DNA of 64,000 bases from Oscillospiraceae bacterium (GCA_015065385.1 SVQK01000128.1:188-64187); one strand, 5' to 3'. Counted from the stretch's first letter, positions 1 to 47,712 are shown. The notes: generated by a model not told the origin, from the sequence alone. Numbers and translations are program-made.

Positions 1-40
1 AAGAAAGCCGCGTTTCCCTTTTAGCTTGAGATTAGTATCA
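1..40 (+). repeat. 3' terminal ~40 nt of a MITE-like element, cut by the window edge; same terminus as 17335-17373
   Basis: aagaaagccgcgtttcccttttagcttgagattagtatca matches 17335-17373 with one 1-nt indel. It ends in the shared terminus TAGTATCA. Confidence 0.5.
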
Positions 41-165
41 GATGTCATTTGGTGGATCGAATCCCGCCCGCCGCGGACAGAACCGGGATCCTGTACCCCT
101 ATCATAGCACGCTCGTGAGCGTTTGTCAATATGTTTTTATCGTTTTTCGATATCTTTTCATCTAA
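38..165. repeat. Copy 1 of a ~125-nt duplicated promoter/leader module (partner at 45504-45632)
   Basis: It shares tcagatgtca, then gccgcggacag..ccgg.atcc, then identical blocks cccctatcatagcacg (16 nt) and agcgtttgtcaatatgtttttatcgtttttcgata (35 nt). Confidence 0.8.
101..129 (-). promoter_or_regulatory. Sigma-70 type promoter reading leftward out of the window
   Basis: The minus strand reads TTGACA (124-129), a 17-nt spacer, then TGcTATGAT (101-109). Confidence 0.6.
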
Positions 166-2315: not shown

Positions 2316-5300
2316 TTAACCAATTCTTTCAAAGCTCAGAGGACCGACGTTGATCTTCTGGCCGTTGTAGTTGACAACGATTTCGAAGGAGTTGTAGTTG
2401 AGGATGAAGTTTACGCCGCCTTCGTACTCGACGCGCACCACGGAACCGCGGGTGGTCTTGTACTTGTCGAGGCCTTCCGCTTCTTCCTCTTCCTCATCGG
2501 GAACAAGTTCGCCGAATTCGTCGTAATGGAAGCCTTCGGGAGCTTCTTCCTGTTCGTCTTCGGCAGCAGCGGGAGCGGCTTCTTCTTCAGCGGGTTCTTC
2601 CACTACGGTTCCGGCCGCGGCGGCAGCTTCAGCCGCGAGACGGGCTTCCAGTCTGGCCTTGCGGTCTTCCTTTTCCTTCTTCAGCGCTTCCTCTTCCTTG
2701 ACTGCCGCGTCTTCAAGGGCCTTGGCGGCGGCGTCGGCTTCCACCTCGTCCTCGTCGGGAACGCGCTCCGCATCGAGGAACTCGTGGTCCACGATGTAGG
2801 AGGTCTGCAGATCCTTGATGGCGTTGTTCAGCGTGCTGTAGTAACGCTCAACGTCGTCTTTCCAGATCTCATAGGAAACGGAGTAATACTTGGAGAGTCT
2901 GAAATCTTCCTTCAGGTCGCTGGTATTCTGGTAGGAGAGCATGAAGTACATCGCGGCGCCGTTTTCGATGGCGTGGAGGATGCCTTCATTGATGTCGCCT
3001 TCCATGTTGATCGGCGTGCCCGCGAAGACCTTGGAGCCGTGGTAAACCATGCCGAGGAACGGGACGGACTCGCTGGCCTTCACATAAGTGGAGGAGGTCA
3101 GGGAGGCGTTCAGGATGACATCCGCGTACTTGACGGCGAAGGCGTTGCCTTCCTCGATCATGACGTGCGGGATATCGGTGCTGATGCGCTCAAGCAGATC
3201 GAGGGTGAACTGCTTGTCGTCCTCGCGGTGATAGGGCTCGTCTTCGTCGAAGTCGGAGTTCAGGTCAGTACCGAGGGTACCGACGGAAATCGAGTCGTTG
3301 CCGTAGGAGAGGTAGGTAGGTCCGAACTTGTCGTAGAGTCTTCCGAAGTACGCCGGGGAGATCGCGATGGCGAACGAACGGTCGAAGCTCTGGGTAGCGG
3401 CGTCATAGGCGCGTCTGGTCGTGTACCGGTCGTCGATAGTGCGGACCGCGTGCCATTTCAGGCTGATACCGTCGAACAGTTCCTGATTGCGGATGTACAC
3501 GAAGTCGAAGTCCGGGTACACGCTGAAATCGTTGGTCTTTGCGAAATCAACGAGGTCGTTGAATCCGCTCTTGCCGCCCACCACGCGGGTCCACTTCAGA
3601 CGGTAGGGAACCGTCGGGTTCATACCGCCGTTGGCATAGCCGGTGAGCTTGAAGTTGATGTTCTTGATTCCCTGCTCGGAGAGCTCGGAATAGATGGTCT
3701 TGATGTCGTCGAAGGTCGTCAGCGGGGTATCCACTTCCACGGGGAAGGACAGGATACGCTCGGTGGTCTTGATGGAACCGAAGGTCTCGATGAAGAGCGG
3801 GACGTCGGCCTTCACGTCGGAAGCGGTCAGCTTGGTCAGGTCGCCTCTCGCGGTCATATAATCGCGGTAAGCGGTGGCCATGCCGGTCCATTCCGCCTTG
3901 TAGCCGTCGGTACCGTTTTCCTTGGCGACTTCTTCATCCTTGAGGAAGATGTACTGGATTCTGTAGGAATCGGTGTACTTTCTCTTGGAGGTCACGGTCC
4001 AGGTTGCGGACCCGGACACGGAGATGGAGTCGGCCAGGTTGTATTCGTCGGACGGACGGGGCGTGAACATGGCGTAAACGGTGTTGTACGGGTGGAGCGA
4101 ACCGCCGCAGACCGCCATGAGGGACGCCAGGGAGTCGCCCTCGGTGATGATGGCAAGGAAGCCGTTGTTGTAGGTCTTCTCTTCCGCCGCTTCTTCGTCG
4201 CCGGAGGTCGGGACTGCGCCGGAGGGAGAACCCGGGTAAGTCGTGACCACGCCGTAGTAGGGCATTCTCATGCTTTCGGCGTGCTGGCCGGAGATCTCAT
4301 GGTACGCGTAGTCGGAACCGTAGAGCTGGCCGGACAGGTTGACGGACTGGCCCTTGAAGTCCTGGAACCGGATCAGGGCGCCGGAGCCGTCCGGGATCAC
4401 GGAATAGCCTTCGTACTCGTTGCTGCCCGCGCCGAAGAACGGGAGAACGGATACGGTCTGGAACTGGTACGCGGATTCGTCGAATTCGATACCGTTTGCG
4501 GGCAGACGGACGGCAAGACCGTCGTCGTTGAGGGTGTATTCAAGGCTGAGACGGAATCTCGGCGGGGCCGCGTCCGCACCGGTGTACTTGGTGAGTTCGT
4601 GGTCGTAGTCGAGTTCTTCGTAGGTGTACAGAGGGCAGTAGGTCTTGATGATGTTTTCAAGTTCTCTCAGCTCTCTGGCCTTGATGTCCGGGTCGCAGAC
4701 GTACACGGCCATTTCGTTCGTGATGGGGAACTTCGCCACCATTTCCAGAACGCCGCGCTCGGTCAGGGTCTCGTCGTCCTTATCCTTCAGGGTGTAGAAG
4801 GAGTTCAGCTTGTTGCGGTGCCAGTCGTAGTCGATCTGGCCGAGAATCAGTTCGTCGAAACGTTCCCGCTTGATCATACGGGGAACGAGACGGATGGTCT
4901 GCTCTTCACCCAGGATGTACTCGACGCGGATACCGTTCTTGATGTTCTTCTTGGTAATCTGGTTCCGGAGAGCGGCTTCATAATAACTGTTCATGGTTTT
5001 CTGAACGTCGTTCTCGAGATAGGTGATGATGATCTGAGAGAGAAGCTGCTGCTTCACGGCGTCGGAAATCGTCTGATAACCGGACGCGAGATCGAAGGGG
5101 TTCGAGAACACGACCTGACCGGTGGAGAGGTCCTTGACGGCGATTTCGCCGGTGAACTCCTCGTACCAGAGCTGGTAGCCGTTCTGTTCCTTGACCATGA
5201 TCATTTCGGCGAGTTTGTCTTCCGCCGTCTCATAGTTCGTGTTCAGATAATCAATCAGCGGCTCGCCGTCTTCGTTGACCTTGTCGGCATAGGCGGCTTC

Positions 5301-5372
5301 TGCGGGGACTACCAGAGAACCGAGAAACATTACCAGTGTCAGGAACGATGAAACGATTCTTTTCACTTTCAT
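2316..5372 (-). CDS. Large secreted or anchored protein of unknown function (recalled as DUF5696-like), with a C-terminal E/A/K-rich coiled segment
   Basis: 1018 aa. N-terminal signal/anchor MKVKRIVSSFLTLVMFLGSLVVPAEAAYA and a GGAG RBS. It is embedded between permease genes. The family assignment is from memory and was not searched. Confidence 0.7.
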   Translation of the reverse strand: MKVKRIVSSFLTLVMFLGSLVVPAEAAYADKVNEDGEPLIDYLNTNYETAEDKLAEMIMVKEQNGYQLWYEEFTGEIAVKDLSTGQVVFSNPFDLASGYQTISDAVKQQLLSQIIITYLENDVQKTMNSYYEAALRNQITKKNIKNGIRVEYILGEEQTIRLVPRMIKRERFDELILGQIDYDWHRNKLNSFYTLKDKDDETLTERGVLEMVAKFPITNEMAVYVCDPDIKARELRELENIIKTYCPLYTYEELDYDHELTKYTGADAAPPRFRLSLEYTLNDDGLAVRLPANGIEFDESAYQFQTVSVLPFFGAGSNEYEGYSVIPDGSGALIRFQDFKGQSVNLSGQLYGSDYAYHEISGQHAESMRMPYYGVVTTYPGSPSGAVPTSGDEEAAEEKTYNNGFLAIITEGDSLASLMAVCGGSLHPYNTVYAMFTPRPSDEYNLADSISVSGSATWTVTSKRKYTDSYRIQYIFLKDEEVAKENGTDGYKAEWTGMATAYRDYMTARGDLTKLTASDVKADVPLFIETFGSIKTTERILSFPVEVDTPLTTFDDIKTIYSELSEQGIKNINFKLTGYANGGMNPTVPYRLKWTRVVGGKSGFNDLVDFAKTNDFSVYPDFDFVYIRNQELFDGISLKWHAVRTIDDRYTTRRAYDAATQSFDRSFAIAISPAYFGRLYDKFGPTYLSYGNDSISVGTLGTDLNSDFDEDEPYHREDDKQFTLDLLERISTDIPHVMIEEGNAFAVKYADVILNASLTSSTYVKASESVPFLGMVYHGSKVFAGTPINMEGDINEGILHAIENGAAMYFMLSYQNTSDLKEDFRLSKYYSVSYEIWKDDVERYYSTLNNAIKDLQTSYIVDHEFLDAERVPDEDEVEADAAAKALEDAAVKEEEALKKEKEDRKARLEARLAAEAAAAAGTVVEEPAEEEAAPAAAEDEQEEAPEGFHYDEFGELVPDEEEEEAEGLDKYKTTRGSVVRVEYEGGVNFILNYNSFEIVVNYNGQKINVGPLSFERIG

Positions 5373-5392
5373 ATCTATTCTCCTTCTCTGTA

Positions 5393-7522
5393 CTATACGC
5401 GGTAACTGATTTCGTTCACGATGTTAGCGATGAAGCTGACGATCTTCGCCATAAGGGAGGAGAACAGCACACCGATGAACATGATAAACGCCATACCGAC
5501 AATGGTTCCGACGCAGGCCAGAATGTTCTTGCCCGCGGAGTAATCGTGCGTGACCATCATGGCGAAGAACAGGAGCAGGCCCATCCAGATATAGGCGAAG
5601 CTCTGGAGCATCGTCAGGATTCCGCCTTCGGTTCTGGTAAGGAAGTTGGAAATGATGGTGACAGGGATGATGATGAGCGGAAGGGGAGTCAGGCAGTAGC
5701 AGCAGGCGGTGAAGATATCCGCCATGGAGCCTTCGCCTTCAAACAGGGTCGTGAGACACCAGTTCGCAACGGTCCAGAGGAGCAGCGGCGCCACGACGGC
5801 GGTGATCGCGCCCATGATGTTGAAGCTGGTGGACGGACGCGGGTTGAAGATATAGCCCGTACCGATGGTGTTGTAGAAGTACGCGATGATGGTGATCAGC
5901 AGGATGACGAAGCCGGATTTGACGGAGCCCCGCTGCTCGTGCTTCAGGTCCCAGAATCCGTCGAACGGATGGAGGATGACGTGGAACGCGTAGAGCAGTT
6001 CTTCTTTCAGGCTCTTGCGGCCGACCTTCAGCGCGGTGCGCTTGTTGACCTTGCCGGCGAACCCGAAGAACTTCGCCAGACCCCAGAAGACGGCCACGAT
6101 GGCGATCGGGATGACCACGAACCACTTGTTCGCCCAGTTCTTCCGGATTTCCTTGTAGGACTCGGAATAGTTCTCGGTTTCGTAGGCGGACTTGTAGTAC
6201 TCCATGGATTCCTCGTACTTGCCCTGACGGTACAGGGACTTGCCGATCTGGATGTACGCGGAGTCGAAGTTGTTGTTTCTCTTGAGGATCTCGGTCCAGT
6301 CTTCGATGGTGTGGTCGTACTGACGGTTGTTGTCGTGCTCGAGCGCGGAGATCAGCAGGTCAGCGTACTCGGTGCGGCGGTACACCACGAAATTGTCGTT
6401 GGTCTTGTCGAGAAGCAGGATCTTGGATCCCTGGTAGGCGATGGCCTCGACGGACTGGATGTTGCCGGTCTGCTGGCCGATATCGCCGAAGACGAAGAGC
6501 AGGTCGCCGTTGTCGTCGTAGGTGAAGACCTTGGACCGCTTCTCGTCGATGATGGACCACGTTCCCTCGGGACCGGTAGCGGCGTCGATGATCTTGGACG
6601 CGCCGGTGATGTTCGCGGTGGAGAGGTTGGTGATACGGACTTCGCCGGACGGAGGATAGAAGCCGTTACGCTTCATAACGTCCGCGCCGGATGCGTTCAG
6701 CTTCTTGACCGGAGCGTAGTCGGAGCTCTTGGACTTGGAGTTGATGGCCGACTGCTGCTGGTTCTGGTCGATGGAAGAAGTCGTAACGTAGATGAAGTTG
6801 TCCTTGTCGATGGAGATGTTGTTGAACTCGGTGGAGACGTATTCCTCGCTCTGCGCTCTCTGCTCGTCGGTCTGGATCTTTCTCCAGATGATGTCGAGGG
6901 CGGAGATGGTGACCTTCTGGGCTCCGATGAAGCCGTAGAAGTCGCCGCTGTCGTTCAGAACGATGATACCCTGATAAGTGGTGGAGGACACGACGAAGAG
7001 TCGGCCGTAGTCGTCAGCCACGCACGCAACGGGCTTATAGATGGATCCCTCTTCAAAGAGGCTGGATTCCGGTTTCGGAATGATCTTGATGTAGTTGCCT
7101 TCCGTGTCGAACATGATGATACGGTTGTTGTCCGTATCGCAGACGTAGATGTTTTCCTCGTTGGCAAACACGCCGGAGGGGTTGTTGAAGCTGTCCGGCA
7201 CGCCGTGTTCGTTCGTGAAGGTGGTGATAATGAACTGGAGCTTGTAGTACCGGTCGAGGACCACGACGCGGTTGTTGGCGGCGTCCACGATGTAGACCTT
7301 CTGATCGGGACCTACGAACAGGTCGCGGGGATCGTCGATCGCGGTTCCAAGACCCATATAGGCAGAATCAACGATCAGGTCCGGCACATACGCCGCGGGG
7401 GAGGTCAGCACCTGTCCCTGCGCGGAGTAGGTGTAGGTCGCGTAGGGAGCGGCCGAGGCGGTGACCGCCAGTACCGAGAGGAGTGTCAGCGATGCCAGAA
7501 GCACGCTAAGAAATTTTTTCAT
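5393..7522 (-). CDS. Secreted NHL-repeat beta-propeller fused to a C-terminal Yip1-type multi-TM domain
   Basis: 709 aa. Signal peptide ...AVTASAA. Repeated NHL-like blades (VYIVDAANNRVVVLD, IYVCDTDNNRIIMFD, LFVVSS.., IYVTTSS..). A TPR-like stretch (GKSLYRQGKYEESMEYYKSAYE). Then about 5 TM helices beginning at a Yip1-like motif (HPFDGFWDLK). Confidence 0.7.
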   Translation of the reverse strand: MKKFLSVLLASLTLLSVLAVTASAAPYATYTYSAQGQVLTSPAAYVPDLIVDSAYMGLGTAIDDPRDLFVGPDQKVYIVDAANNRVVVLDRYYKLQFIITTFTNEHGVPDSFNNPSGVFANEENIYVCDTDNNRIIMFDTEGNYIKIIPKPESSLFEEGSIYKPVACVADDYGRLFVVSSTTYQGIIVLNDSGDFYGFIGAQKVTISALDIIWRKIQTDEQRAQSEEYVSTEFNNISIDKDNFIYVTTSSIDQNQQQSAINSKSKSSDYAPVKKLNASGADVMKRNGFYPPSGEVRITNLSTANITGASKIIDAATGPEGTWSIIDEKRSKVFTYDDNGDLLFVFGDIGQQTGNIQSVEAIAYQGSKILLLDKTNDNFVVYRRTEYADLLISALEHDNNRQYDHTIEDWTEILKRNNNFDSAYIQIGKSLYRQGKYEESMEYYKSAYETENYSESYKEIRKNWANKWFVVIPIAIVAVFWGLAKFFGFAGKVNKRTALKVGRKSLKEELLYAFHVILHPFDGFWDLKHEQRGSVKSGFVILLITIIAYFYNTIGTGYIFNPRPSTSFNIMGAITAVVAPLLLWTVANWCLTTLFEGEGSMADIFTACCYCLTPLPLIIIPVTIISNFLTRTEGGILTMLQSFAYIWMGLLLFFAMMVTHDYSAGKNILACVGTIVGMAFIMFIGVLFSSLMAKIVSFIANIVNEISYRV

Positions 7523-17006: not shown

Positions 17007-17035
17007 TTGCATTCCCTCCCCCGCTGTGGTATAAT
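17007..17035 (+). promoter_or_regulatory. Promoter of the 17388 gene, giving a ~350-nt leader
   Basis: TTGCAT (17007-17012), a 17-nt spacer, then TATAAT (17030-17035). Confidence 0.6.
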
Positions 17036-17166
17036 GACGCCGGAGCCGCGGGAGCGAACAACAGCCTTCCCTTCTGCGGTGAATAATACAAGTCATACTA
17101 TTCACAGTCAAAAAGCAAAACTTCATGGGTTTTGATCGCTCCATGTAGGGTGCGAATCGCCGTGCG

Positions 17167-17182
17167 GCTCAACTTGTTGAGC
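17167..17182. promoter_or_regulatory. Perfect 16-bp palindrome GCTCAACTTGTTGAGC (site 1), candidate operator
   Basis: An identical copy lies 138 bp downstream at 17305-17320. Both are in the leader of the 17388 gene. Confidence 0.4.
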
Positions 17183-17304
17183 GGATGGGCATCGCGTGCG
17201 ATAACTCTGATAAGGTTGGATGACTATATTGGTATGCCGAAGCCCCAGCTTCACTTGATTGGTATAATCTATCCTTTGTCTCCTTCCCCATGAAGTTCTT
17301 TGCT

Positions 17305-17320
17305 GCTCAACTTGTTGAGC
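17305..17320. promoter_or_regulatory. Perfect 16-bp palindrome GCTCAACTTGTTGAGC (site 2), candidate operator
   Basis: Identical to 17167-17182. It lies 68 nt upstream of the ATG at 17388. Confidence 0.4.
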
Positions 17321-17387
17321 GAGCTTTCATCCGAAAGAAAGCCGCGTTTCCCTTTTGCTTGAGATTAGTATCAACCGGGAGGATGCC

Positions 17388-18797
17388 ATGTATCCGAAAA
17401 AAGCCGAAATCATCTCCGCCCTCGCCGTCATGGAGGAGTCCGTCCGCGCCGAGCAGAAGAAGCTGACGAAAGAAGCGTCTCTCGCCGACTACGCCCGCTG
17501 TGCGAAGAGCGGCACGCAGAACGGGACAGACGTCACCGTCTGGACCGAAGCGTTTCAGAAAGCGCTCGATGAAAACGAAATCGTGCGCATTCCGGCGGCC
17601 TCCGAACCATACTATATCGACGCGCCCGTGATCCTTCCGTCAAACCGGCGGATCGAAGCGGAGGACGGAGCGGTGATCCGCCTGACGGAAGGGGTTCGGA
17701 CGATTCTTTTCCGCAACGCGCACACCTCGGACGGGACACACCGCCCGGTATCCGGAGAGCGCGACCGCAATATCGCCGTGATCGGAGGCCGCTGGGAGGA
17801 GAGCATCGACCACCGGGCCGGTTACGGCTACACGGGCATGATCGACGCGGAGAGAAGCTATTACGGCGTCTCGACCTGCATGTTTTTCAACAACATGGAC
17901 GGGCTGCTGCTCGAAAACCTGACCTTTGCCCACACGGCGGGATTCTCCGTACAGGTCGGGGATATCAAAAACGCCGTCATGAAGAACATCGCCTTCGCGG
18001 AATGCTACGCGGACGGCCTGCACGTCAATGGAAACATGGAAAACCTGTGGATCCGGGACGTGCGCGGTCAGTGCGGGGACGATCTGGTGGCGCTGAACGC
18101 CTACGACTGGCAGAACTCGTCCGTGGATTTCGGCCCCATGAAGACGGTCCTCTGCGAAAACCTCGAGCTCTCCGCGGACAGCCCGTGCAAGGCGATGCGC
18201 GTTCAGCCGGGACTGTACTATTACGACGACGGCTCCTCCGTGGACTGCGCGCTGTACGACACGATCATCCGGAACGTGCGGGGGATCAAGTCCTTCAAGC
18301 TCTACTATCAGACGCCGGCCTACCGCATCGAAGGCGGGACTCCGGAAAAGGGCGCGCCGGGAAGCGGGGACTGGCTGTTCTTCGAGGACATCCTGATGGA
18401 TCTGGACGGTCCGAACGACGGGTTCCGGGAGTATCTGGAGTCCGATCCGGTGCGCGGGAAATTCGCCGCCTTCGAAATCGGATCGAATATCGGGCATCTG
18501 GTACTCGAGAACATCGATCTGACGCTTCATCGGGACCGCTATCCGCTGTCCGCGCTGCTCTGCGTGGGTCCGAAATCCTGTCTGATCCGGGACGGGGAGG
18601 TAGAAGTCTTCGATCCGTATGTGAACTGTCATGTGGATGCCATTGAAGTGAACGGGCTCCGGATCAACGGCGGGAAACCGGAGGACACGGCCGCGATCCT
18701 GCGCACGGTCCGGTTCGACAACATCAACCATGACGGACGATCCACGGGCTGCGGAACGGTCGGTTCGCTCCGCCTCGACGGGAGAGAGGTGAGATAA
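17388..18797 (+). CDS. Right-handed beta-helix (pectin-lyase fold) protein, putative glycoside hydrolase or lyase
   Basis: Start refined to MYPKKAEII (GGGAGG RBS). It has repeating beta-helix-like turns (NAVMKNIAFAECYADGLHVNGNMENLWIRDV...). No signal peptide. Confidence 0.55.
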   Translation: MYPKKAEIISALAVMEESVRAEQKKLTKEASLADYARCAKSGTQNGTDVTVWTEAFQKALDENEIVRIPAASEPYYIDAPVILPSNRRIEAEDGAVIRLTEGVRTILFRNAHTSDGTHRPVSGERDRNIAVIGGRWEESIDHRAGYGYTGMIDAERSYYGVSTCMFFNNMDGLLLENLTFAHTAGFSVQVGDIKNAVMKNIAFAECYADGLHVNGNMENLWIRDVRGQCGDDLVALNAYDWQNSSVDFGPMKTVLCENLELSADSPCKAMRVQPGLYYYDDGSSVDCALYDTIIRNVRGIKSFKLYYQTPAYRIEGGTPEKGAPGSGDWLFFEDILMDLDGPNDGFREYLESDPVRGKFAAFEIGSNIGHLVLENIDLTLHRDRYPLSALLCVGPKSCLIRDGEVEVFDPYVNCHVDAIEVNGLRINGGKPEDTAAILRTVRFDNINHDGRSTGCGTVGSLRLDGREVR

Positions 18798-18840: not shown

Positions 18841-19098
18841 CGCCTCTCCCCTGTTCTCGCGGCAGGATGCTATAATTGGTGCATAATCCACGATCTGTGA
18901 CAGGAGCGAACGCATACAGGATGGAAGGAAAGAGAGGAATATCGGTATCTCGGAAGCCGCACAGACGTGGATGAATCCGAGCCGGAGAAAACCGCCAGCG
19001 CGTGAAAAACGAATCAGGACGGGCAGTTTGACTTGTCCGTCCTGAATGTGGGATCCGCCTCCACTGAATATCCCTATGGGATACAGCGCGAGGTGGAG

Positions 19099-19132
19099 AC
19101 CTTTTTTCATGGAAACATTGGGACTCGAACCC
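19099..19132 (-). pseudogene. Duplicated 3' fragment of tRNA-Val (T-arm plus acceptor 3' strand plus 3' flank)
   Basis: 34/34 nt identical to 19296-19329 (accttttttcatggaaacattgggactcgaaccc). There is no matching 5' acceptor, D arm or anticodon arm upstream. Confidence 0.7.
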
Positions 19133-19270: not shown

Positions 19271-19300
19271 AAAAAAGGCCTCACACGAGTTGAGGACCTT
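19271..19300 (-). terminator. Terminator after tRNA-Val
   Basis: The minus strand reads GGtCCTCA-actcgtg-TGAGGCC followed by TTTTTT. Confidence 0.6.
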
Positions 19301-19306
19301 TTTTCA

Positions 19307-19380
19307 TGGAAACATTGGGACTCGAACCCAAGACCTCTCGGATGTGAACCGAACGCTCTAACCAGCTGAGCTATGCTTCC
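19307..19380 (-). tRNA. tRNA-Val (anticodon CAC)
   Basis: Manual cloverleaf: GGAAGCA TA GCTC AGCTGGTTA GAGC G TTCGG TTCACAT CCGAG AGGTC TTGGG TTCGAGT CCCAA TGTTTCC A. Confidence 0.9.
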
Positions 19381-21804: not shown

Positions 21805-22449
21805 TCAATCCCCGGAAAACGCCTTCGGGTAGGCGTAAAAGATCCTGTCGTCCTCGACGAGCCTGCCGATCCCGTCCTTCCCTTCCACGACGTTCACGGC
21901 GCAGTTGTAAGGGACGTGCCCGTGCCAGAAATCGTCCGGATCGTCGTACAGAGCGTTCAGCATCGCCCTCGTCGCAAAGCCGTGCGTAGTCACAAGAACG
22001 GTAGCGCCGTCGTTTTCCGGATCCCGAAGCAGCTCCGTCAGCAGGGACTGTGTCCGGCGGCACACGTCCCGCACCGTCTCTCCTCCGGGAAATCCGCCGA
22101 GCAGAAACGGATTTTCGAAGAACAGGGCCACTTTTCCCGAATCGAGCTCGCACGCCCCGGCCCGGAACTTTTTGTGCTCCCAGTCTCCGAGGTGCGCCTC
22201 CTTAGCGCGGTCGTCCAACTCGATGGGAACTCCCCCGTTTCCGCTCTCGCGCAGAAGGATCTCCGCCGTCTCCCGGGCTCTGGAAAGCGGGCTCGAGATA
22301 CAGCGGTCAAACCGGATCCCCGAAAGAGCACGGCCCGTAACCGCCGCAAGCTCCCGCCCCTTTTCGTTCAGAGGATCGTCGGTCCAGCCCTGAAAATACC
22401 CCTCCGTGTTGCCGTCGGTCTCGCCGTGCCTGACGATATAAATGCGCAT
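21805..22449 (-). CDS. Histidine phosphatase family protein (phosphoglycerate mutase-like)
   Basis: Start refined to MRIYIVRHGETDGN (RHG motif at the N-terminus, RBS GGTGAGGA). The longer track ORF runs into the repeat element. Confidence 0.85.
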   Translation of the reverse strand: MRIYIVRHGETDGNTEGYFQGWTDDPLNEKGRELAAVTGRALSGIRFDRCISSPLSRARETAEILLRESGNGGVPIELDDRAKEAHLGDWEHKKFRAGACELDSGKVALFFENPFLLGGFPGGETVRDVCRRTQSLLTELLRDPENDGATVLVTTHGFATRAMLNALYDDPDDFWHGHVPYNCAVNVVEGKDGIGRLVEDDRIFYAYPKAFSGD

Positions 22450-22486
22450 GATGTCCTCACCCCCGCCGCCGTCTTTCCGCGGATCC

Positions 22487-22515
22487 ATTATAGCACGCAG
22501 GAGGCCGGGCGTCAA
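22487..22515 (-). promoter_or_regulatory. Promoter of the histidine phosphatase gene
   Basis: The minus strand reads TTGACG, a 17-nt spacer, then TGcTATAAT. Confidence 0.6.
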
Positions 22516-22543
22516 GAAGTGTCCGCCGATGCGATCCCAATTG

Positions 22544-22576
22544 AAAAAACCGGACTCCGTTTTCAGCGGAATCCGG
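22544..22576 (-). terminator. Intrinsic terminator for leftward transcription
   Basis: CCGGAcTCCG-ttttcag-CGGAaTCCGG, with TTTTTT on the minus strand (A-run 22544-22549). Confidence 0.6.
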
Positions 22577-22602
22577 CCGTTTCGATCGCGGACCAATAAA
22601 CC

Positions 22603-22946
22603 CATACTGTTTCGCTTCTAAACGGTTTGATCGTGCACAGACAGAACAGATCTGACAAGTTTCGTCTGCACAAAACCAAGATGATCCCCTTGCCCAATGC
22701 GCGACTGAAGCTCTTCGACCTCCGGCTGTACAAACGCGGACCGCGCGAGGACAGCGGGTTGCGCAATCAGGCTTGTTTACAGGCACGAGCTGTTGCCTTA
22801 TGCCATATGGCCAAGGGGGACCCTCGGGAGGGGCACCTTCGGCCTGAGATGGTGTCCCTCCCGACGCCTCCCGCGCGTAGCGGGATTAGATCCGAAACGC
22901 GCAGCGTTTCTTTCCTTAAATTCCTTTAGAAGGGATTTAGTATCAC
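22603..22946 (+). repeat. Structured intergenic repeat, copy A (344 nt); MITE-like element or unclassified ncRNA
   Basis: It aligns end to end with the reverse complement of 46189-46583. The shared blocks include a 52-nt block with 3 mismatches (22693-22744). Compensatory substitutions occur in the stem 22824-32/22856-64. It is AT-rich compared with its flanks. Confidence 0.7.
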
Positions 22947-23266
22947 TTTCCCGCGGCGTCGCGTTCCCGGTCGAGGCGGGTGTTGCGGAAGTACAGAGCG
23001 ACATCGATGGAGATCTCGATAAAGTTCAGCACATAGAAGATCGCGCTGAGGAAGAAGAGGAATCCGGACTGGTGCATCACGACCAGCTGGATGACCTTCC
23101 GCGCGATACCGAACGCGTATCCGATCAGAAGAAAGACTTCGAAGAACAGGCTCTTGCCCTTCGCGGTCCGGGAAATCCACGATTTGCGGATGGAAATGGG
23201 CCAGGAGAGCCCGAAACAGAGGATGGTCAGCGCTTCAAAGAGGTCGGTAAGCTGGGCGAGTGTCAT
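22943..23266 (-). CDS. Small 3-TM membrane protein, PQ-loop/SemiSWEET-like
   Basis: Start refined to MTLAQLTDLFEAL (RBS AAGGAG). It has a WPISIRKSWISRTAKGKS motif resembling a PQ-loop. The stop codon overlaps the repeat terminus. Confidence 0.5.
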   Translation of the reverse strand: MTLAQLTDLFEALTILCFGLSWPISIRKSWISRTAKGKSLFFEVFLLIGYAFGIARKVIQLVVMHQSGFLFFLSAIFYVLNFIEISIDVALYFRNTRLDRERDAAGK

Positions 23267-45503: not shown

Positions 45504-45632
45504 TCAGATGTCAGTGATTGAATATGGATCCCCTGCCGCGGACAGGTTCCGGATCCAGTGCCCCTATCATAGCACGAAGCAGAGCGTTTGTCAATATGTT
45601 TTTATCGTTTTTCGATAATTTTTCATCGATTT
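45504..45632. repeat. Copy 2 of the duplicated promoter/leader module (partner at 38-165)
   Basis: See 38-165. This copy contains the promoter and 5' UTR of the DUF2975 operon. Confidence 0.8.
45566..45594 (-). promoter_or_regulatory. Promoter of the DUF2975/HTH/lipoprotein operon
   Basis: The minus strand reads TTGACA, a 17-nt spacer, then TGcTATGAT. Confidence 0.65.
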
Positions 45633-46188: not shown

Positions 46189-46583
46189 CTGATATAATAA
46201 CCCTTCTAAAGGGAAATAAAAACGAAACGCTGCGCGTTTCTGGAAATGGATGCCCTGCTCAGGGCGGGAGGCACGGGGGGACACCATCTCAGGCCGAAGT
46301 TTTCCCCCCGTGCGGGGGTTTCCTTGGCCATATGGCATAACCTAACCTTTCGTCCTTGAATCGAAAATCAATTATGTATCCCACTGTCCTCGCGCGAAGT
46401 TTCGCCTTTGGCGAACTTCAGAAATTCGCCTTTGGCGAACTTTCAGCGGTCCGCGTTTGTGCAGTTGGAGGTCGAAGAGCTTCAGTCGCGCATTGGGCAT
46501 TGGGAACATAGTTGGTTAGTGCAGACAAAACTTGTCAGAGCAGTTCTGTGTACGACCAGATTGTTTTGAAGCGAAACAGTATG
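46189..46583 (-). repeat. Structured intergenic repeat, copy B (395 nt, inverted relative to copy A)
   Basis: Its reverse complement aligns with 22603-22946 from CATACTGTTTCGCTTC to CCTTTAGAAGGG..TAT.A. It carries a 50-nt insertion and one divergent ~45-nt segment. Confidence 0.7.
46401..46441. repeat. Tandem duplicated 17-nt hairpin unit inside copy B
   Basis: ttcgcctttggcgaact occurs at 46401-46417 and 46425-46441. Each unit is a TTCGCC-TTT-GGCGAA hairpin. Both are absent from copy A. Confidence 0.75.
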
Positions 46584-46616
46584 AAAAAAGCGCAGACCTC
46601 GTTCGGAAGCCTGCGC
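46584..46616 (-). terminator. Intrinsic terminator of the barnase-barstar operon
   Basis: The minus strand reads GCGCAGgcttccgaacgaggtCTGCGC followed by TTTTTT. It abuts the 5' end of repeat copy B. Confidence 0.7.
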
Positions 46617-46634: not shown

Positions 46635-46913
46635 TCACCGGAACACCACGGTAAAGCGGTCATCCTCGCGCTCCACGTCCCGCAGCATGTGGCGCAGTCC
46701 CACGGCATACTCGCCGAGGCCAGCACGAAGCGCGTCGAAGTTTTCGATCTCGATCGTCAGGGGAGCGGCGGGAAGGAGTTCGTGAAGCAGTACGTCGTGG
46801 AGCGCGTCCAGATTCCGTCCGAAATAGTCGGGCAGATCCATGTGGGATTCCAGCGCGTCGTACAGCTCGCGGCGGCTTGCGATGGACGCTCCGTCAAGGA
46901 TCACATATTTCAT
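46635..46913 (-). CDS. Barstar family ribonuclease inhibitor
   Basis: Start refined to MKYVILDGASIASRRELYDALESHMDLPDYFGRNLDALHDVL. It starts 1 nt after the barnase-like stop. Confidence 0.85.
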   Translation of the reverse strand: MKYVILDGASIASRRELYDALESHMDLPDYFGRNLDALHDVLLHELLPAAPLTIEIENFDALRAGLGEYAVGLRHMLRDVEREDDRFTVVFR

Positions 46914-46914
46914 G

Positions 46915-47712
46915 TCATTCCTCCCCGTAAAGAAGCTCAAAGGTTTCGTAGTGATCCCCGGTGTAGTAAATCAGGCCGTCGTTAGAGTATACGATCCGTT
47001 TCGCTCCCCGGGAGGATTTGCCGAGGGTCCCGATGTCGCACTCGTGGTATTCCCTGCCCTTCTTCTTCGGAAGGACCCCCTCGTAGTTTCCGAAATAGGA
47101 TCCGCCGATGCACTTTCCGGGCGCGTACCGTTCGAGGGATCCGCCCGTCCAGCCGAGCTTCTCCGCCTCTTTCTTCGAAATGTAGTTGGGCGGGAGCTTT
47201 CCGTAGGTGTGGATGTACAGTGCGACGTTTTCTTTGTCGTCGTAGGATCCGTTCTCGTCGATGGCCGGTTCGGGTTCCGGCTCCGGTTGAGGTTGAGGCT
47301 CGGGCTCCGGTTCAGGCTCTGCGGCGGGCTCCGGTTCGGGCACAGGCTCCGGTTCGGGCTCGGGCGTGACCTCCGGGGCGGGGGCGGGATCGTCGGCAGG
47401 TTCGGCCGCTTCGGCAGGCTCGTCCTGTCCCTCCGCTTCGGTGGCTGCGGGCTGCTCCGGCTGTTCCGGCTGCTCCGGCTGAACTGCCTGCTCCGGTTGT
47501 TCCGCTTGCTCCGGTTCCTCCGGATCGTTCAGCGTGAGTCCGCCGTCGCCGTAATCCTTCGAGGAGTTGTCCGCCGATCCGTTGTCCGCCAGTTCCAGAG
47601 CGAGATCCAGTATTTCGCCGACCGCCGATTCGCTGCATCCGGTCAGAACGCCGGAAAACAGCACGGCCAGCGTCAGCAGCGCAAGCAGTCCCGCCGCGGT
47701 TCTCTTCCACAT
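46915..47712 (-). CDS. Secreted lipoprotein ribonuclease (barnase/N1-T1 family) with a Pro/Glu-rich linker
   Basis: Lipobox LTGC and a linker rich in PEQ/PEPEP. The C-terminal domain reads YIHTYGKLPPNYISKKEAEKLGW...YHECDIG...RGAKRIVYSNDGLIYYTGDHYETF. Confidence 0.85.
   Translation of the reverse strand: MWKRTAAGLLALLTLAVLFSGVLTGCSESAVGEILDLALELADNGSADNSSKDYGDGGLTLNDPEEPEQAEQPEQAVQPEQPEQPEQPAATEAEGQDEPAEAAEPADDPAPAPEVTPEPEPEPVPEPEPAAEPEPEPEPQPQPEPEPEPAIDENGSYDDKENVALYIHTYGKLPPNYISKKEAEKLGWTGGSLERYAPGKCIGGSYFGNYEGVLPKKKGREYHECDIGTLGKSSRGAKRIVYSNDGLIYYTGDHYETFELLYGEE

Follow-up and report, generated by a model that had tools for sequence, protein, structure and literature searches.

Prokaryotic MITEs have been reviewed with the modular pneumococcal repeats BOX, RUP and SPRITE and the Correia elements of Neisseria among them (PMC10969869). 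The repeat family described here resembles these elements in being short, non-coding, multicopy and intergenic, in lying often immediately upstream of genes and, putatively, in relying on a transposase that acts in trans. Further, optional or repeated sub-units, clustered or nested elements and stable structures predicted for the transcripts are found on both sides. In contrast, there is no sequence relation between them, the cargo is larger here (~300-400 nt), and the present family has many independently covarying helices, an invariant apex and a pseudoknot, with most of its copies devoid of the inverted termini that delimit A and B, the two copies found in the DNA analysed. On this comparison, modular bacterial MITEs such as BOX and Correia would be the closest in kind, the difference residing in the size of the fold and the degree of its conservation.

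Duplication of a 3-bp TNA target is a property of IS5-family subgroups and of PIF/Harbinger-type DDE transposons (ISfinder classes). Like them, A and B have terminal inverted repeats of ~20 bp and 3-bp T-N-A direct repeats; unlike them, A and B have termini that start with TACT instead of the GG or GA typical of IS5 groups, and no cognate transposase was found in the sequence searched. PATEs (IS200/IS605) and REP/BIME sequences are likewise multicopy, intergenic and hairpin-rich and have strand-specific structure. Contrary to these, A and B are bounded by terminal inverted repeats with direct repeats outside them, no HUH transposase or TnpB is encoded nearby, and the architecture is much larger. 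Finally, the RNAs ROOL, GOLLD, HEARO/omega-RNA and OLE share with the family a length of several hundred nucleotides, many covarying helices and variable peripheral hairpins at fixed sites, and ROOL also shares the rumen origin and often adjoins tRNA genes, as B does. These RNAs are single-copy or tied to a protein gene, whereas the present family occurs in dozens of copies per genome, in every orientation, and has no Rfam match even at E < 10.

Two diverged copies of one non-coding element

The DNA analysed, referred to here as the window, is a 64-kb stretch from an Oscillospiraceae bacterium. As the original prediction had claimed, copy A (22603-22946, plus strand) aligns end to end with the reverse complement of copy B (46189-46583), with a mean column identity of 79%. 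The exact limits of the two copies are 22605-22942 (+) for A, a 338-bp non-coding MITE-type element, and 46193-46581 (−) for B, an element of 389 bp; both sizes are below the ~600 bp that bounds a MITE. Every sequence block that had been quoted as shared is present exactly twice in the window, with about zero occurrences expected by chance from shuffles, and the 52-nt block at 22693-22744 was found to differ at three positions, as reported. The same is true of the compensatory changes: the helix TCGGGAGGG/CCCTCCCGA of A corresponds to GCACGGGGGG/CCCCCCGTGC in B, and the hairpin CCCGC..GCGGG of A is replaced in B by GCCCT..AGGGC. The description of the segment as AT-rich is correct only in relative terms, the GC content being 50-55% in the segment and ~62% around it. 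Reading frames had been described as not conserved; they switch along the A/B alignment and B has stops in all six frames. A and B are non-coding.

When a covariance model of the family was searched on the window, only A (E = 7e-28) and B (E = 4e-19) were recovered, the next matches having E > 0.1, and comparison of the window with itself agreed that these are its sole two copies. The likeness between A and B is far above chance and the observation is genuine; A and B appear to be old, diverged copies of one small non-coding element. B has a specific insertion of 52 nt (46394-46445, minus strand, limits approximate) made of two tandem GTTCGCC-AAA-GGCGAA hairpins, occupying a position at which different inserts, also of two hairpins, are found in other members of the family. 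The cargo of A has a reduced 5′ domain (22696-22752, +), which runs from AATGCGCG to CCGCGCGAGGAC, is closed by GCGCG/CGCGC and takes in most of the 52-nt block 22693-22744. Relative to the family unit, the 5′ domain is shortened in both A and B.

Termini, flanking triplets and sites of insertion

The ends of A had been described as an imperfect inverted repeat, CATACT/AGTATC. The ends are indeed inverted, with a length of ~19 bp instead of 6. The 5′ terminal inverted repeat, TACTGTTTCGCTTCTAAAC (22605-22623, +), pairs at ~15 of 19 positions with the 3′ terminal inverted repeat, TTTAGAAGGGATTTAGTA (22925-22942, +), giving imperfect ends of the TACTG...CAGTA type, and ~15 of 19 positions are also paired when TACTGTTTCGCTTCTAAA is set against the 3′ repeat. 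A, B and their closest relatives among the fetched loci (L035, L052, L129 and L163) start with the first of these sequences and finish with the second. Copies with TACT...AGTA termini number ~9 among the fetched loci.

Immediately outside these termini, A is flanked by CCA on the left (22602-22604) and TCA on the right (22943-22945), and B by TCA on both sides (46582-46584 and 46190-46192, read on the minus strand). Of the 20 flanks of elements with these termini, 19 have the form T-N-A. Left and right triplets agree in six of ten elements (TCA/TCA in B, in the element at window position 17096, in L006 and in L163; TAA/TAA in L052; TTA/TTA in L172) and unequal in four of ten, namely A (CCA/TCA) and three others in which they are one base apart. 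Because the T-N-A repeats are direct, and not inverted, a 3-bp target duplication is their simplest reading. The flanks fit decayed duplications of this kind, without amounting to proof of them, and the CCA to the left of A probably derives by decay from a duplicated TCA target.

Termini of the same type surround unrelated interiors at window 17096-17370, in a cut copy at window 1-37, and in L006, L172, L050 and L154, the last of which is only 213 bp long. The finding of A/B termini on elements with unrelated cargo argues that A and B are MITE-type insertions. The second MITE of the window (17096-17370, +) has 275 bp, termini TACTATTCACAG...GATTAGTA and TCA on either flank (17093-17095 and 17371-17373). 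It is situated between an extended −10-like site (TGTGGTATAAT, ~17026-17040) and an RBS/ATG at ~17379-17391, hence within a 5′ untranslated region. The 3′ end of a further copy of this second MITE occupies positions 1-40 (+), cut by the window start, with the element reaching to base 37 and a TCA at 38-40. Window 38-162 is 81% identical over 125 bp to 45504-45627, which lies upstream of the tRNA cluster and contains no MITE; the likeness starts exactly at the TCA, so that either a paralogous empty site or a promoter region common to both places may be involved.

The window, 1.6 Mb of fetched loci and viral contigs were scanned for an autonomous element bounded by these termini, and none was detected; the viral contigs gave only single chance matches that had no inverted partner. 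An IS5-family transposase was considered as the parent because its gene adjoins a TACT-type terminus in L085, and was rejected because this IS has its own ends, AAGGAACCRCTGAATAA, which are seen in the full copy of L214 and in L085 itself. This IS (DUF772 + DDE_Tnp_1) covers L085 1-275, where it sits inside a TACT-type MITE, and L214 ~1000-2260, where the transposase is split by an in-frame stop.

The genomic positions of A and B are consistent with insertion. A is located between the stop codon and the terminator of a neighbouring gene: the TCA at 22943-22945 reads TGA on the minus strand and is the stop codon of a gene for a 107-aa membrane protein (22943-23266), and the intrinsic terminator of this gene (22548-22578, −) lies 25 nt past A's far end. 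In relatives at 77-82% identity the terminator of the orthologous gene is at most ~40 nt from the stop codon and the element is absent. The insertion of A moved that terminator ~340 bp from the stop codon. B is located between two convergent terminators, beginning directly after the T-run of the barstar terminator and ending 15-20 nt from the terminator of the tRNA cluster. Neither copy has a co-oriented downstream gene. Both look like passengers, A lengthening, in antisense, the 3′ untranslated region of the small membrane-protein gene and B lying between terminators. No strict empty site was recovered; the same-species contigs all carry the insert and the downstream region of the distant relatives is not syntenic. 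Same-species contigs that include flanking genes (11 for A and 20 for B) are identical in their overlaps and many of them end inside the element, as expected of a multicopy repeat.

A conserved fold on one strand

The conserved 3′ domain consists of four parts: a hairpin of 17 positions with an invariant apex, a 4-bp pseudoknot between its loop and an upstream strand, one to three small hairpins and a terminator-like hairpin. In A, all on the plus strand, the main hairpin spans 22824-22864, comprising 17 stacked positions, a U·U mismatch (22838/22850) and the 7-nt loop GGCCTGA (22841-22847); the putative pseudoknot would join loop bases 22841-22844 by 4 bp to an upstream strand, GGCC at 22809-22812; a small GC-rich hairpin, CCCGC-GCGTA-GCGGG, in which all five pairs covary, occupies 22870-22884; and the terminal hairpin GAAACGC-GCA-GCGTTTC with its TTTCCTT tail (22894-22917) looks like a terminator. 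In B the 3′ domain corresponds to 46219-46329 (−; covariance-model match, E = 3.8e-19), with the pseudoknot GGCC at 46326-46329, the main hairpin at 46271-46313, its loop at 46289-46295, a small hairpin at 46252-46265 and the terminal hairpin at 46224-46240. The terminal hairpin passes the terminator scan in both copies. One detail of the original prediction had to be revised: the sequence CTTCGGCCTGAGATGGTGT, presented as a 19-nt loop, is mostly stem, CCUUC pairing with GAUGG around the conserved U·U mismatch and leaving the 7-nt loop GGCCUGA.

The pairs of the main hairpin were counted outward from the loop, free of any alignment, in 81 distinct cores. All 17 positions are stacked and the U·U is conserved at position 3. 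Position 2 is U-A in 68 cores and G-C in 13, without a single one-sided change, and positions 7, 8, 12 and 14-17 display three or four pair types each. G·U was found 64 times and A·C 16 times, and this four-to-one excess indicates that the plus strand of A is the folded strand. Minimum-free-energy folding does not separate the strands (z = −5.2 vs −4.9). A MAFFT alignment of 49 distinct 3′ domains, for which the structure was specified by hand, had 96.3% of its cells paired and changes on both sides in 21 of 30 pairs (203 cells); its covariation score of 0.363 compares with 0.125 for shuffles, none of 500 reaching the observed value, and with at most 0.109 for slid partners. A model-fitted alignment of 142 distinct sequences, which leans towards the structure, gave 96.0% paired cells and both-side changes in 23 of 27 pairs (540 cells). 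All of these measures count sequences and not events, the sequences being related and the stems amounting to perhaps ten recombining versions, each fully complementary. The claim of a conserved structure with compensatory changes is thus strongly supported once ~140 homologues are aligned.

The loop GGCC could base-pair with a second GGCC, part of GGCCAAGG and located 12 nt before the main stem. The outer pair of this pseudoknot is G-C in 102 sequences and A-U in eight (AGCC with GGCU), one-sided changes are absent from the copies whose loop is intact, and A-U accompanies several different versions of the stem. The evidence for GGCC/GGCC is suggestive, as one ancestral double change could account for its covariation. 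A longer pseudoknot, GGCCAAGG/CCUUCGGCC, was discarded: position 33 covaries with position 43 inside the hairpin, and only the GGCC/GGCC part survives.

A modular repeat family of rumen Clostridia

A scan of the genome collection with 18 bases of the hairpin apex returned 75 loci, 55 of which belong to four rumen MAG species, and ~40 of these 55 to one MAG, uncultured Ruminococcus sp. RUG10688. The remaining loci are chance matches in unrelated phyla, in about the number expected. As these matches, including Desulfuromonadales L012, have no other sequence in common with the family, they were rejected as members; L012 (a Desulfuromonadales MAG) carries at 4259-4492 a different tandem repeat in which the 18-mer CTTCGGCCTGAGATGGTG appears twice, judged to be chance. 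By the genome scan the family is confined to a few related species. A degenerate scan of metagenomes revealed members in at least 56 loci, of the 120 matches listed, almost all from rumen-type samples, and the covariance model of the 3′ domain gave 152 matches in 724 kb of fetched loci. RUG10688 holds at least 58 distinct copies. Of the further copies and the autonomous parent envisaged by the original prediction, the former are thus numerous, and the latter is absent from the window, the 1.6 Mb of loci and the viral contigs. The interior of A and B is a member of a large intergenic repeat family in rumen Clostridia. A protein neighbouring the element has a homologue named Acutalibacteraceae by its source, suggestive of a window organism that belongs near this group.

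Most members of the family lack TACT termini and have sharp ends at CCGCGG and TTTCCTT, or other 3′ modules, one of which is the palindrome ATAGTGTGAACACACTAT, where similarity stops after the palindrome. The aligned copies define a family unit of ~370-420 nt in A's orientation. Its 5′ part comprises, in this order, the CCGCGG start, ~55 nt leading to ATGCGCG, and a 5′ domain with two or three hairpins, such as GTTTGC..GCAAAC and GTGAAATTCC..GGGATTTCAC, each of which exists in several compensated versions. The 5′ domain is followed by CCGCGCGAGGAC. Here some copies have two additional hairpins, always inserted at one position, which is also that of B's 52 nt. A variable hairpin region comes next, and then UUAUGCYNNNCGGCCAAGG, the main hairpin, one to three small GC hairpins and, at the 3′ end, the terminal hairpin with a GNA-type loop and UUUCCUU. 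Modules have been shuffled from copy to copy, and where two species have a copy at the same locus, as with the nagB leaders (L003/L013) and the fhs leaders (L054/L026), the two are unlike in their inserts and in the version of their helices. This shuffling of modules and the differences between same-locus copies indicate that copies of the family exchange segments.

Two further arrangements were noticed among the fetched loci. Palindromic composites of ~0.7-1 kb (L043 1983-2887, L033 6959-7788, L046 5066-6033 and about nine other loci) are made of two different unit types placed head to head, in divergent orientation, with overlapping 5′ ends (TTCCCGCGAGGA), and their arms run outward through further shared hairpin modules. 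Other copies have extra hairpins inside the main hairpin or beside GGCCAA (L002 ~2640-2880 and 5150-5400; L026 ~400-560), one of this set having an internal duplication of half the main hairpin. The copies with extra hairpins imply that the fold tolerates insertions at defined points.

Searches of Rfam 15, performed on the window at gathering threshold and as permissive scans (E up to 10) on A, B and eight unit-bearing loci, detected only tRNAs and noise. The core motifs and the element found no family member in viral collections, PLSDB plasmids or GenBank phages, and no mention of the conserved strings was found in the searchable literature. The family is undescribed: it is outside Rfam and belongs to no known repeat family.

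Genes around the copies and the question of a host function

A possible explanation for a fold of this kind is that it serves the host, as a family of ~370-nt small RNAs or as the 5′ leader of downstream genes, with the mobile termini of A and B acquired by incidental capture. The strong covariation, the invariant apex and the pseudoknot, the G·U bias that marks one strand as folded and the terminator-like 3′ hairpin would all be expected of such an RNA. Further, ~30 of 64 units are followed, after 10-60 nt, by the RBS and ATG of a gene in the same orientation, and in at least two cases, nagB (L003, L013) and fhs (L054, L026), a copy occupies the same upstream position in two species. These RBS-adjacent and same-locus copies could have a host function. 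The leader interpretation, attractive from the ~30 RBS-adjacent copies, fails on overall orientation. Rough gene calls place 63 copies in the orientation of the downstream gene and 64 against it, and of the 88 copies for which a gene was called on either side 21 sit between convergent genes; a cis-regulatory leader would be consistently co-oriented upstream of related genes. The absence of an orientation bias makes a copy-by-copy host function unlikely. The genes downstream of the units are functionally unrelated housekeeping genes (clpP, hprK, mutS, dnaG, tgt, metA, fhs, nagB and others), and A and B have no co-oriented downstream gene at all. A shared upstream module, TTGACA-N17-TATAGC, was considered as a promoter and dropped, as it fails the sigma-70 scan. 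Against a host-functional RNA stand also the restriction of the family to a few related species in the genome scan and a copy number, at least 58 per genome, far above that of any known trans-acting sRNA family. Overall, we regard a host-functional RNA as rather unlikely. The presence of copies in every orientation and at sites without a plausible host role suggests instead that the constraint is exerted on the family's own propagation or persistence, or on a few source copies, and not locus by locus. We infer that the fold serves the persistence or spread of the repeat family rather than the neighbouring genes.

The proteins encoded around the copies offered no alternative association: all-against-all clustering of the neighbouring ORFs recovered no recurrent proteins beyond common paralogues, namely components of ABC transporters, oxidoreductases, sulfatases and a sigma factor, and TnpA, RAYT, TnpB, iscB and IS110 recombinase did not recur near the ~150 copies.

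How the element may move

The original prediction had proposed either a structured RNA family or a mobile element (MITE or PATE). For A and B the MITE part holds, in view of the inverted termini, the T-N-A flanks, the occurrence of the same termini on unrelated elements, the insertion-like contexts and the relatives without insert, and the conserved structure holds as well. The PATE (IS200/IS605) part does not, because terminal inverted repeats and direct flanking repeats are present and no TnpA or TnpB gene is nearby. The interpretation towards which we lean, with some reserve, is that A and B are a MITE carrying cargo from a modular repeat family with a constrained single-strand fold. A and B would be non-autonomous cut-and-paste DNA transposons of the DDE type, and a transposase encoded elsewhere and acting in trans would recognise their ~19-bp TACT...AGTA inverted termini and insert them at T-N-A sites, mostly TCA, with duplication of those three bases. 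The same enzyme would also move at least one other MITE family in the genome of the window. The 300-nt cargo would represent one member of the modular intergenic family that abounds in Acutalibacteraceae-like Clostridia of the rumen. It would have retained the ability to fold on A's plus strand, where a 5′ domain is followed by a long hairpin, by small hairpins numbering one to three and by a hairpin that resembles a terminator; the loop of the long hairpin, GGC(C/U)UGA, is predicted to pair with an upstream (G/A)GCC. The molecule in which the fold acts would be single-stranded and most probably a transcript, RNA being preferred to single-stranded DNA because of the G·U bias and of the 3′ end, which looks like a terminator.

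Transposition of this kind does not account for everything that was observed. Because most members have no TACT termini, the MITE mechanism does not explain the spread of the bulk of the family, and neither 'MITE' nor 'structured RNA' alone describes it. A cut-and-paste transposon needs no internal fold, and the conservation of the fold is not accounted for by the MITE mechanism. A more speculative proposal, to which we attach a low probability, is that the ~110-nt core, formed by (G/A)GCC, the 17-bp hairpin with its invariant apex and loop pseudoknot, the small hairpins and the terminal hairpin, and with it the full 370-nt unit, constitutes a new class of mobile structured RNA whose fold is needed for spread or maintenance. 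Such an RNA might be a ribozyme, a scaffold for a recombinase or reverse transcriptase, or a guide-like RNA. If true, this proposal would account for the retention of structure by more than 100 copies in all orientations, most of them without transposon ends.

It is improbable that the sequences are single-stranded DNA hairpins mobilised by an enzyme of the HUH type (IS200/IS605 TnpA or a REP-associated RAYT), in the way of PATEs or REP/BIME. Strand-specific structure, tolerance of G·T, a conserved T·T mismatch in the stem and the frequency of very stable GNA-type loops would suit such a mechanism, as would the mosaic, modular build and the intergenic location near terminators, as in BIMEs. 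However, the terminal inverted repeats and the direct T-N-A flanks of A and B have no counterpart in IS200/IS605-type elements, the lack of a recurrent TnpA, RAYT or TnpB gene described above applies, and six or more covarying hairpins plus a pseudoknot contrast with the two subterminal hairpins of HUH systems. Still less probable is an origin from an RNA-guided mobile system (TnpB/IscB omega-RNA or IS110 bridge RNA), of which the module would be a satellite or relic with a sharp 3′ end abutting a guide or target. A long, pseudoknotted, multicopy scaffold with a sharp 3′ boundary beside variable flanks would suit this origin; against it, no tnpB, iscB or IS110 recombinase adjoins any of ~150 copies, there is no Rfam match to omega-RNA-type families (HEARO, IS605-orfB), and no conserved flank motif was seen.

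Implications and further features of the window

Returning to the MITE with structured cargo, its implications depend on the role of the fold. If the fold is baggage, A and B define a new MITE family and, with it, a system of modular repeats of the BOX kind in rumen Clostridia, a poorly studied group. A functional fold would mean a large RNA with a pseudoknot, outside Rfam, that exists in dozens of copies per genome and is found in the 5′ untranslated regions of clpP, mutS, dnaG, fhs and other core genes; it would be a natural case in which to ask how an RNA of this kind spreads and how it alters the expression of genes across the genome. Binding or cleavage assays would have a concrete handle in the invariant apex, CCUUC-GGCCUGA-GAUGG, and its U·U mismatch.

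In practical terms, metagenome contigs break at the element, which thus affects assembly, and the element creates spurious ORFs. The latter effect is visible next to A: on the minus strand (21805-22605), an ATG inside A (22603-22605) adds 51 codons to the open frame of a histidine phosphatase. Gene callers applied to the public contigs take this start inside A, and the real start is at 22449-22451, with an RBS and its own promoter. Beside B, also on the minus strand (46635-47712), a gene for a secreted barnase-like ribonuclease (265 aa, PF00545) overlaps the gene of a barstar inhibitor (92 aa, PF01337). Elsewhere in the window, a 44-bp direct repeat (19089-19132 and 19286-19329, 93% identical) takes in a terminator T-run together with the 3′ end of a minus-strand tRNA-Val (19307-19380), and its second copy resembles the remnant of a tRNA 3′ half (weak tRNA-Sec-like match, E = 0.9) and may be the scar of an integrated element.
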